NCBI GenBank assembly: GCA_005191425.1
Contig: SUPR01000038.1
Location: 1 to 29,198, forward strand
Length of the DNA: 29,198 bases
Reading direction: 5' to 3'
From: Candidatus Helarchaeota ASGARD archaeon Hel_GB_B
Lineage (GTDB): Archaea; Asgardarchaeota; Lokiarchaeia; Helarchaeales; HEL-GB-B
Both the position numbers and the translations under genes were made by a program. Shown in pieces: positions 1-7,878 of the stretch. Numbering within the stretch: position 1 is the first letter of the stretch; each line of letters begins with the position of its first letter. The notes under the pieces were generated by a model, which did no database searches, was not told the origin of the DNA, and was given only the letters and a program-made list of their open reading frames with translations.

Positions 1-545
1 CATTCTCAAAAAAATGGTCAATTTTCGTGGTAAAAGGTCTGTATCTGCTTGGAATTTAGTTTTATATTTTCATTTTACAATTCGCCAGTTTCCTGATCTG
101 GTCGAAGATGTAGTGGACGGGATGAAAATATGTCCGATTATTGCAAGGAGGTCTGAAAATCTATTCTGGAGGTCATTAAAAAGTGGTGTGAAATTAAAGT
201 CGGAAACTATTTATATAAAAAATTCCAAATAATGAAAGCAACGGAAATTAAAAAAACTCTGATTTTATTAGTTTTAATTTGAGTTTTCAAAAAAAATTTG
301 AAAAATATTTACACTTTTTCATTGAAATTTTTATAAACAAATTTCAACCAATACTTCATCAGATTTAACTAGAAAATCAACATCTATATAGAAAATTTAA
401 GAATTAAAGTTGGTAATAAAAAAATTAAATAAAATTATGTTGGATGTGATATTTTAGAAAAAATCGAAAAAATTAAAAAAATAGCATTGGAAAAATGTTG
501 GGTTTAAATTAAGAAAAAAATGCAATAATCAAAAAGTTCAAATAT

Positions 546-695
546 GGAACACCATGCTTGCTACTTTTTCTTTCGATTTAACCCAACAGTTGTCTGGGTG
601 CTCCCAGGCTACGGGGAACCCTCAAACCGGCGGAATCGTTCCGCAGATTGGGTAACTCCCTACATTTTCTTTTTCCACTTCAGGCATGGTGTTCC
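546..695 (+). ncRNA. Candidate structured non-coding RNA (alternatively a MITE-like element), family unrecognised
   Basis: 15-bp terminal inverted repeat (546-560 GGAACACCATGCTTG / 681-695 CAGGCATGGTGTTCC). Inner stem 581-586/648-653, hairpins 592-609 and 630-644. Core 581-660 is 48/80 G+C versus 14/60 in the flank 481-540. Both non-Watson-Crick positions are G-U on the + strand. Confidence 0.55.
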
Positions 696-895
696 TTCTT
701 TTTAAAAATTAAATCTCATCATCATTAAAATAATTTTTGGAAATTATGTTCTGAATTCAAAAAATTTTCTAATATAATTTGTGTATCATTTTCTCTTATT
801 TTTTAAGTTGGACGATTAATTTTACATTAAAAATTCTTTATTTGATCATTACCATAATTTCTATAAGAGGAAATGTAGAATATTAATTAGTAAAA

Positions 896-3311: not shown

Positions 3312-3566
3312 ATGAGATTATTTAAAAAACTTTCGGACTATTTTGAAACTAATAGATACCAACACATAATACCAGCGGGTTTTGATTATAAGGACTTAGA
3401 AGAATTTCAATCAGTTCTTTTTAAAGAACATGAAATTGCAAGAATGAAGTATGATGAAACAAATAATAATGATTTTGCTGATATTGCTATTGATTGTTTG
3501 GTAACAATAAATCAATTGGAGCGGTTAAAACTTCGCACATTGATAAAAAATAAATTAGATTGGTAA
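3312..3566 (+). CDS. Small hypothetical protein (84 aa, predicted helical)
   Basis: ATG-started ORF filling the gap between the helicase and the convergent DUF362 gene; plausible charged composition; no family recognised. Confidence 0.6.
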   Translation: MRLFKKLSDYFETNRYQHIIPAGFDYKDLEEFQSVLFKEHEIARMKYDETNNNDFADIAIDCLVTINQLERLKLRTLIKNKLDW

Positions 3567-6768: not shown

Positions 6769-7878
6769 GTGAATGAAATGTATGATGAAAAAGAAAAATT
6801 AATCGCAATAAGAAATATTGTCAAGAAATCAAAAATATATTTTTATAAAGAAGTTATCCTTTTTATTGATAAATATCTAAATGGAGAAATTCCTCCAAAT
6901 TCCATTATAGATAAATCTAATATTTCTGCTATTTTAAATATTGATAAAATAAAAGTTTCAAAAATTCTAAGTATTCTCAAGAAATTAGGGGTCATCGAGA
7001 AAATTGGTAATCAAAAATATTATTTAAAAAAAGTTAGTGATTTCAAAAACATTGCAAAAAATTGGGTAATGGACTCAATATCAAATGATTTAGATGATTT
7101 AAATTTATTGTTCAATGAACATAGTCAAATCACTTTTTTCCAAAATTTGGATTTATTAGCAGGGTATTCTAAGAGCAATGAACTTATTAGTACGCTCAAT
7201 TTAAACAAAAACATATATCAAGAAAATTGTTTATGTGAATTATTATTTAAGGAAAATTGGGACGGTATCCCAAACTCGCACAAAGATGTTATTGATGGGA
7301 GCATTTCAAAATATATTTATGAACTTTATCATACAAAATATTTGATTCTAAAAAAGAAACTAGATTCTTTATCTAATGATCCCTATTGTAGTGGCAAATT
7401 CTATTATATCACCTGTCTTAAGCAAATTAAAAACATTTTTTTCCCTCAATTTATCGATAGCGTAAAACCATTGCCAAAAAAAAATAGGAAAACTTTAGTC
7501 TATTTACTTAATAATTTTAGAGATGGTATTTATGAATTCAAGAGATATTTCGATAAAAATAAATTCATGTTAATAATAAACACATCTTTCGATAGATTTA
7601 ATGGCCCCATGATACTTGTTGATAATTATTTTTTACAATTATATTATGAAGATTATTATTCTCCAATAAATTCATCGATTCTATATTTTAATAACCCACA
7701 TATTTCCAGAATAATTTCTGATAAATTTATAAAATTGTTTTTGACGCTATTTCGTCATGAAATTGCTCAGTTTAATATATTTTCAGATTTTGATAAAATG
7801 TCTGGAAGTGAATACGGCAATTATTTATATCAGTTGGCTATAAAAGTCTTGGACAATTATATTGAGAAAATAAAATAA
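6769..7878 (+). CDS. Putative transcriptional regulator: N-terminal winged HTH (GntR-like) plus unassigned C-terminal domain
   Basis: LNGEIPPNSII...VSKILSILKKLGVIEKIG resembles the GntR wHTH pattern; GTG start, alternative ATG at 6778. Confidence 0.55.
   Translation: MNEMYDEKEKLIAIRNIVKKSKIYFYKEVILFIDKYLNGEIPPNSIIDKSNISAILNIDKIKVSKILSILKKLGVIEKIGNQKYYLKKVSDFKNIAKNWVMDSISNDLDDLNLLFNEHSQITFFQNLDLLAGYSKSNELISTLNLNKNIYQENCLCELLFKENWDGIPNSHKDVIDGSISKYIYELYHTKYLILKKKLDSLSNDPYCSGKFYYITCLKQIKNIFFPQFIDSVKPLPKKNRKTLVYLLNNFRDGIYEFKRYFDKNKFMLIINTSFDRFNGPMILVDNYFLQLYYEDYYSPINSSILYFNNPHISRIISDKFIKLFLTLFRHEIAQFNIFSDFDKMSGSEYGNYLYQLAIKVLDNYIEKIK

Follow-up and report, generated by a model that had tools for sequence, protein, structure and literature searches.

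A GC-rich, structured island in an AT-rich Asgard archaeon as a candidate lineage-restricted small RNA gene

The stretch of DNA analysed here, 29,198 nucleotides and referred to below as the window, comes from an AT-rich Asgard archaeon and carries, between two ordinary genes, a sharply bounded GC-rich island of 150 bases (546-695; hereafter, the element). The element is non-coding, and the arrangement of repeats and hairpins first noticed in a sequence-only reading of the window is confirmed as being more than chance. We tentatively favour the view that it is a small, independent gene for a structured RNA, about 150-170 nt long and restricted to this lineage. If transcribed, it would add one more lineage-specific structured RNA to the Asgard archaea, a group whose ncRNA repertoire is almost unknown, and its layout, a clamp and an open loop with two exposed near-identical motifs, would merit biochemistry. 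In practical terms, it gives the first small-RNA sequencing of the lineage a named candidate to look for.

Composition, layout and predicted fold

The GC content of the element is 50%, and 60.3% over its core (581-653), as compared with 27.7% in the window, 28% in the genome and 17.5% in both flanks (260-545 and 696-895). GC islands in AT-rich archaea are reportedly a classic sign of an RNA gene, a point ascribed to Klein, Misulovin and Eddy in 2002, and an island of 50-60% GC in such flanks argues for our preferred reading. The closing stem, the direct repeats, the 60% GC core, the hairpins, the GGG/CCC pairing and the two CTCCC motifs of the sequence-only reading were all recovered, by reading the sequence and by a repeat search, and are collected with the neighbouring signals in the table.

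Table. Parts of the element and neighbouring signals, in window coordinates
Feature	Position	Strand	Remarks
5' arm of the 15-bp closing inverted repeat	546-560		pairs with 681-695
3' arm of the closing inverted repeat	681-695		pairs with 546-560
Direct repeat, copy 1, CTACTTTTTCTTT	561-573		part of a 20-nt unpaired 5' linker (561-580); T5 at 565-569
Direct repeat, copy 2, CTACATTTTCTTT	660-672		part of a 27-nt unpaired 3' linker (654-680); T4 at 665-668, T5 at 670-674
GC-rich core	581-653		two hairpins and two mutually exclusive closures
Core hairpin	592-598/603-609		includes T593-G608; extendable by 589-590/611-612
Core hairpin	630-635/639-644		GCGGAA/TTCCGC, loop TCG
GGG/CCC	613-621		within the core
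ACCCAA/TTGGGT	581-586/648-653		one of two possible core closures
Alternative core closure	613-621 with 650-653 and 657-661		
BHB-like hairpin (helix, 3-nt bulge, 4-bp helix, bulge), then ACA (662-664) and a T-run	613-664	+ only	lead
Stretch complementary to parts of the element	490-522	+	GTTGGGTTTAAAT (495-507) to 576-587; AAGAAAAAAATG (511-522) to both T-rich linkers
TATA-like TTATTTTAA	725-733	-	putative, in AT-rich spacer; box centre lies 34 nt upstream of the stem, with A-rich CCAAAAA before it
T5 (535-531) and T7 (520-514)	513-535	-	11 and 26 nt past the stem; possible minus-strand terminators
TTCTTTTT	696-703	+	directly after the closing stem; possible terminator, judged from archaeal oligo-T termination
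TATA-like TTTAAATT	503-510	+	putative; 36-43 nt upstream of the stem

The closing stem consists of 14 Watson-Crick pairs and one G-U pair (T558-G683), which forms on the plus strand and becomes an A-C mismatch on the minus strand. The two direct repeats are identical at 12 of 13 positions in the repeat search; judged by the genome-wide frequency of such T-rich 13-mers, a repeat of this length is borderline (estimated p of about 0.05-0.1). On the plus strand the two linkers contain a single G in 47 nt, and on the minus strand they are purine-rich, so that the two strands of the loop would be unable to pair with each other. CTCCC is present at 601-605 and 656-660, and the hairpin loops, of 4 and 3 nt, belong to neither of the stable types GNRA and UNCG. 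The whole is nested: inverted repeat, direct repeat, core with a short terminal inverted sequence (TTAACCCAA / TTGGGTAA), direct repeat and inverted repeat.

An ORF of 53 aa (544-705) spans the element. Its codon score is -0.52, as compared with at least +0.24 in windows of the helicase gene, its GC3 is 49% against 19%, and a protein search returned neither a Pfam family nor a homologue. A protein gene at 544-705 was rejected on account of this foreign codon usage and of the lack of a Pfam family or homologue.

The MFE of a 161-nt stretch is -57.5 kcal/mol on the plus strand (z -5.87; 0 of 200 shuffles as good) and -53.6 kcal/mol on the minus strand (z -4.13; again no shuffle as good). Folding of this quality (z -5.9 and -4.1) argues for a small RNA gene. 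Conversely, the core by itself folds with a modest gain over shuffles (z -1.8 to -2.7), which, like the ordinary loops and the absence of a K-turn by eye, counts against that reading. The sequence-only reading had the core folding as a junction closed by ACCCAA/TTGGGT. The two sequences are there, but the MFE fold uses a different pairing, in which 613-621 pairs with 650-661 in place of the junction; the best fold constrained to contain the junction reaches -54.3 as compared with -57.5 kcal/mol. As modelled, the fold of the core is ambiguous between the two closures.

In the 3.54-Mb genome we found 17 inverted repeats of at least 13 bp with a GC-containing seed and with arms 50-220 nt apart. 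Two of the 17 surround a GC-rich interior in AT-rich flanks, namely the element and, at C74:25125-25281, the non-coding end of an IS110 copy. That no more than two loci of the genome combine a long GC-containing inverted repeat with a GC-rich interior, the element being one of them, is in favour of a small RNA gene. It is also consistent with the main rival explanation, to which we give a smaller chance and which we regard as rather unlikely: that the element acts, or once acted, at the level of DNA, as a palindromic insert of recent origin, whether acquired or generated, that has no function as RNA. Such a relic might be the solo non-coding end of a mobile element, a site for recombination or protein binding, or the result of a small insertion, with the 13-nt repeats as its duplication scar. 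The nested layout of inverted repeat, direct repeat and core would fit a relic of this kind, as would the fact that the sole architectural analogue in the genome is a mobile-element end, and a recent DNA palindrome would look identical to the RNA gene that we prefer. However, an unconstrained core of 60% GC should decay fast in this genome, and the element shows no similarity to other loci, the IS110 end included.

Genomic setting and searches for relatives

The natural setting, as seen in other assemblies, is an AT-rich spacer of 724 nt that has the element mid-way and separates a PHP-domain gene (+) from the gene (+) for a DEXH helicase of the MrfA type, which has an MZB/DUF1998 domain. Between the end of the element and the ATG of the helicase gene lie 200 nt of AT-rich, TATA-like DNA. 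The 10 kb to the left, recovered from other assemblies, code for an acetyltransferase, hydrolases, an acyl-CoA dehydrogenase, PEMT and short-chain dehydrogenases. Genes for a reverse transcriptase, a transposase or an integrase are absent from these 10 kb and from the 28 kb to the right of the element, and so the genes left of the window, to which the sequence-only reading had pointed as a place to look for such enzymes, offer no reverse transcriptase or transposase within that distance. These surroundings count against a DNA-level relic.

The element is carried unchanged by contigs from JGI, ENA and NCBI that belong to the same species and are 99.5% identical. It is invariant in six assemblies, as compared with 4 SNPs in the 286-nt spacer upstream; this comparison is in the direction of a small RNA gene, although the difference is not significant (overall divergence 0.46%). 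None of the six assemblies has an empty-site variant or a presence/absence polymorphism, and Logan contigs from four DNA runs, covering 300-1000, contain no variant, joint or deletion in the element. Moreover, the bases just outside the 15-bp arms (…AAATAT / TTCTTT…) are not duplicated; it is the inner 13-nt direct repeats that flank the core instead. The absence of a target-site duplication around the arms and of a presence/absence polymorphism both speak against a relic.

The window itself begins with the end of a multi-copy repeat (1-259, ending at about 259) that includes the C-terminal 76 codons of an ORF without a Pfam family. Near-identical copies are found at the end of C152 and at the starts of C105 and C63, with fragments at C150:17845-18051 and C104:779-989 and on C45, C168, C137 and C76, and four contigs break inside the repeat. 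It is missing from the site in other strains (L056, L085-L088) and so represents an unclassified mobile element that is polymorphic for insertion here. Since the strains without the repeat still carry the element, and since no GC island was found alongside the other genomic copies of the repeat, the element is independent of it. The non-coding nature of the element, surroundings free of mobile genes and this independence are all in favour of a small RNA gene. To the right of the helicase gene, an 84-aa ORF (3312-3566, +) that precedes a DUF362 gene was called as a gene in 5 of 5 other assemblies and has no Pfam family. A 369-aa ORF further on (6769-7878, +) has as its sole Pfam signal a sub-threshold match to an N-terminal phage replisome organiser domain (21.7 bits; cut-off 23.3).

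Rfam 15 gave 0 matches at gathering thresholds in the window. With E up to 10, four chance-level matches were obtained in 300-950; they scored no higher than 22 bits, where the cut-offs are 34-80, and the element is covered by none of them. ARAGORN placed no tRNA at the element. The sequence-only reading, which knew of no RNA class that the element would match, is upheld in this respect, and the novelty that it proposed is not removed by an Rfam family. Within its own genome the element has one copy, as determined both by BLASTN and with a covariance model, so that the dispersed copies that the sequence-only reading had considered do not exist here; in a BLASTN search of this genome and 40 relatives the matches elsewhere were chance ones to the T-rich linkers. 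A single copy also weighs against a relic.

The covariance model, built from the single sequence and comprising 39 base pairs, gave no credible relative when run on the order (7 genomes), the class (151) and the phylum (151). Three weak matches at the level of the class were rejected, as they were antisense or within ORFs. Viral contigs contained nothing that matched either of two patterns, metagenome contigs matched the two-hairpin pattern in the same species only, and in genome contigs a degenerate two-hairpin pattern gave 2 matches in GC-rich bacteria, for an estimated 2.4 or so expected by chance. Plasmid and phage collections gave no BLASTN match to the element. In 161 genomes of the class the pair of direct repeats, used as a pattern, was matched no more often than a reversed control, and the 13-mers used as probes for trans targets were uninformative, with about 50 near-matches per orientation genome-wide. 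Helicase orthologues of 46-48% identity in two relatives (G006 and G002) have no comparable upstream element, and the PHP orthologue (58% identity) in the sole same-genus genome (G001) has no GC island downstream.

Among the genomes and collections searched, the element thus appears in one species only. No homologue was found in the genus, order, class or phylum, or in the metagenome, genome, viral, plasmid and phage collections, and so neither covariation nor long-term purifying selection is seen, which counts against a small RNA gene. Occurrence in one species would suit a relic, although no donor was found for it either in any collection searched. The sequence-only reading had offered a novel archaeal ncRNA or a mobile element. 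A structured, unrecognised element that is possibly an ncRNA stands, but the mobile half of that proposal is unsupported: a non-autonomous element or MITE does not agree with one genomic copy by BLASTN, none in relatives and no empty site in six assemblies.

We consider it extremely unlikely that the element belongs to a known class, that is, that it is a retron msr-msd, a MITE, a Y RNA or YrlA, a tRNA, a 5S rRNA or a 53-aa protein gene. Its inverted repeats do recall retron a1/a2 or MITE terminal repeats, its pyrimidine-rich loop on a long terminal stem is reminiscent of Y RNA, and an open frame spans it, but each candidate is contradicted by the tests. A retron was rejected, as neither the 93.7%-complete genome nor the recovered left flank contains RVT_1, and the retron-like layout of the sequence-only reading is not borne out. 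Rejection of a MITE follows from the single copy, the absence of copies in relatives and the lack of an insertion polymorphism. For Y RNA and YrlA, TROVE (PF05731) is absent from this 93.7%-complete genome in a search in which the controls responded, and no Y RNA of Rfam is matched. A tRNA was rejected in view of the ARAGORN and Rfam results and of the absence, by eye, of a 7-nt T-loop on either strand. 5S rRNA (RF00001) is unmatched at the element with E up to 10, and the SRP RNA (Archaea_SRP) and RNase P RNA (RNaseP_arch) are matched elsewhere in the genome, as befits an archaeon; all three were rejected. A replication-origin ORB site was also dropped: there is a single partial resemblance (GTGGAAA…GAAA…GGG on the minus strand), no cluster and no orc1/cdc6 nearby. 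Single mini-ORBs are scattered and bind weakly (PMC1904270).

Other RNA-like loci of the genome came to light in these searches. Twenty GC islands were compared with Rfam and gave no match; most lie within long ORFs, so they provide no base rate. An orphan island outside long ORFs, C97:12385-12459 (+), has 56% GC in flanks of 27% GC, an 8-bp GC stem (GTGGCGGG/CCCGCCAC) enclosed by an AT-rich outer stem of 9 bp, and no Rfam match. A relationship between this island and the element was rejected, as the 10-mer that they have in common is not significant (22 of 500 shuffles). The islands C107:13221-13293 (-) and C111:17806-17880 (-) resemble tRNA genes with non-canonical introns. The former has a textbook T-arm (CTGGG-TTCAAGT-CCCAG) after an AT-rich insert, and in the latter the T-arm (CCGGG TTCGA … AATCCCGG) is seemingly interrupted; both were missed by ARAGORN, which lists 16 tRNAs for the whole genome, and by Rfam (E up to 0.01). 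For 5S rRNA, nothing in this genome passes the Rfam cut-off of 38 bits; the only matches are two weak, adjacent ones in tandem at C108:17125-17316 (-), of 24 and 19.9 bits.

Strand and possible modes of action

The signals for the strand conflict. The two G-U pairs, 558/683 and 593/608, fit the plus strand, and the sequence-only reading had taken them as a sign of selection on a plus-strand RNA. This argument is weak, because under neutral transitions (C-to-T, either strand) both would fall on the plus side about 1 time in 4, and it is opposed by two T5 runs and by a skew of G below C on that strand. Also for the plus strand are the better fold energy and the T-run immediately 3' of the stem. 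Archaeal RNA polymerase terminates at oligo-T, and on the plus strand the element has T5 runs at 565-569 and 670-674 in addition to a T4. In contrast, among 14 known ncRNAs of the same genome (12 tRNAs, the SRP RNA and the RNase P RNA; about 2 kb in total) there is no run of at least five T on the sense strand. The GC skew of the element is -0.15 on the plus and +0.15 on the minus strand, as compared with 0.00 to +0.14 in all 14 known ncRNAs, and the minus strand has no internal run of at least four T. Boxes comparable to the minus-strand TATA-like sequence are found about 24-34 nt upstream of the tRNA, SRP and RNase P genes of the genome. In having G above C, no T run of four or more, a TATA-like box and T5 and T7 runs downstream, the minus strand resembles the known RNA genes of this genome, which supports a small RNA gene, and we lean slightly towards it as the transcribed strand. 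That composition and T-run avoidance point to the minus strand and the G-U pairs to the plus strand nevertheless counts against that reading, and is what would be expected of a DNA relic without RNA-level selection on either strand, as is the tolerance of T5 runs on the plus strand. The element also holds a caution, namely that G-U counting alone does not settle a strand.

If the element is a small RNA gene, the 15-bp terminal helix would join the 5' and 3' ends of the RNA and clamp open a large internal loop with strands of 20 and 27 nt. The loop would carry the 73-nt GC-rich core, with its two stable hairpins, as a scaffold, and each of its strands would display one copy of the near-identical 13-nt motif. 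The most likely way for such an RNA to work would be as a scaffold with two equivalent single-stranded sites, the partner being either an RNA-binding protein that forms dimers or a complementary nucleic acid of which two copies bind. Transcription, the strand transcribed and the bivalent display are all features that we infer.

An RNA of the plus strand acting in cis, either as a leader or attenuator of the helicase mRNA or as an insulating terminator after the PHP gene, seems to us improbable. The orientation that the element shares with both flanking genes would agree with it, as would the T-run directly 3' of the stem and the G-U pairs. In the form spelled out here, which we likewise hold to be improbable, the closing stem and UUCUUUUU would stop transcription, with the A-rich stretch at 490-522 supplying alternative pairings. 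In the MFE fold of 470-720 (251 nt, plus strand) the pairings of 490-522 with the linkers and with ACCCAA displace the closing stem. As a lead, then, 490-522 would give alternative pairings if plus-strand transcription starts upstream, but A-rich/T-rich complementarity is expected by chance in DNA of 17% GC. Against an action in cis, the internal T5 runs would halt archaeal RNA polymerase early, 200 nt of AT-rich, TATA-like DNA separate the element from the ATG, and the relatives lack such a leader before the helicase, just as the same-genus genome lacks an island after the PHP gene. The regulatory link to the helicase drawn in the sequence-only reading fails on the same two relatives. To our knowledge, hairpin-dependent attenuation is not an established archaeal mechanism.

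To a guide-type RNA of the plus strand we give a slimmer chance still. Here a hairpin followed by ACA would make an H/ACA-like pseudouridylation guide, possibly with a BHB intron (624-655) for the tRNA-splicing endonuclease. In the MFE fold ACA and a T-run come directly after the hairpin 613-661, and the lower part of this hairpin, a 5-bp helix, a 3-nt bulge (622-624), a 4-bp central helix (ACCC/GGGT) and a second 3-nt bulge (654-656), has the canonical BHB orientation. However, a BHB-like layout as good was present in 111 of 300 shuffled 200-nt segments (37%). From the upper stem to ACA there are 17 nt, whereas the canonical spacing in H/ACA RNA is 14-16 nt, and by eye the upper stem GCGGAA/TTCCGC has neither a K-turn nor a K-loop (no tandem G.A). 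The H/ACA models of Rfam are unmatched at the element, RF00064 has no match anywhere in the genome, the 15-bp outer stem would be left unexplained, and a T5 run lies upstream on the same strand. A box C/D guide RNA finds no support either: box C (RUGAUGA) is absent from both strands of 546-695; an ATGATGA at 716-722 (-), outside the element, scores 22 bits to snoR10 against a cut-off of 65.

Comparison with known RNA systems

In a retron msr-msd, as in the element (546-560/681-695), an inverted repeat joins the 5' and 3' ends and hairpins lie within; unlike a retron, the element has no reverse transcriptase at its locus or in its genome. Y RNA and bacterial YrlA share with it a terminal stem formed by both ends, a pyrimidine-rich internal loop and, on the plus strand, an oligo-U tail, but the genome has no Ro/TROVE protein and no Y RNA of Rfam matches.

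The nearest counterpart within the genome is the 5' non-coding RNA of the IS110 element, a bridge-RNA candidate and the only other case of a perfect closing stem of at least 13 bp around a GC-richer interior of about 130 nt. This RNA (C74:25125-25281, minus strand; L047:1626-1782) folds with -69.8 kcal/mol (z -8.1) and lies upstream of a fragmented recombinase, of which PF01548 and PF02371 are in separate ORFs. In contrast, no DEDD recombinase (PF01548, PF02371) is found beside the element or within 10 kb, and there is no similarity between the two RNAs by sequence or by covariance model. Moreover, the 13-bp closing stem of the IS110 RNA encloses two arms directly, without the large open loop of the element. 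A point of likeness is that in bridge RNAs the two strands of a large internal loop both bear guide segments (bioRxiv 10.1101/2024.06.21.599552).

Very improbably, the element could represent a new kind of archaeal RNA, in which a terminal helix clamps a loop with two 13-nt strands in mirror register, to serve either as a bivalent guide or, on the plus strand, as a U-rich, ENE-like triple-helix clamp. The bivalent guide might by analogy be likened to the paired guide loops of bridge and C/D RNAs, without an adjoining recombinase; it shares this very small probability with the triple-helix version. Triple-helix clamps of the ENE type are found in PAN and MALAT1. On the plus strand of the element, a U5-C-U3 and a U4-C-U5 strand would face each other across the internal loop between helices, with the C at a similar height, and the register of the linkers is the one needed for a U.A-U / C+.G-C triplex with an A-rich strand, a resemblance at the level of sequence only; AAGAAAAAAA at 511-520 is complementary to both linkers. 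Unlike ENEs, the element has no ENE match in Rfam, and suitable A-rich tracts are everywhere in the genome; we know of no stable poly(A) tails in archaea. The ENE-like reading would apply only if the plus strand were transcribed through its own T5 runs.

The small RNA gene that we prefer has its closest parallel in the Hgc RNAs of Methanocaldococcus and Pyrococcus, small RNAs of GC-rich islands that came from GC-content screens of AT-rich archaea. The element differs from RNAs of this type in matching no Rfam family, Hgc included, and in having no homologue in the genomes searched. Like them, it is sharply bounded, GC-rich, folding and non-coding, and lies in an AT-rich intergenic region with TATA-like sequences upstream and T-runs downstream.
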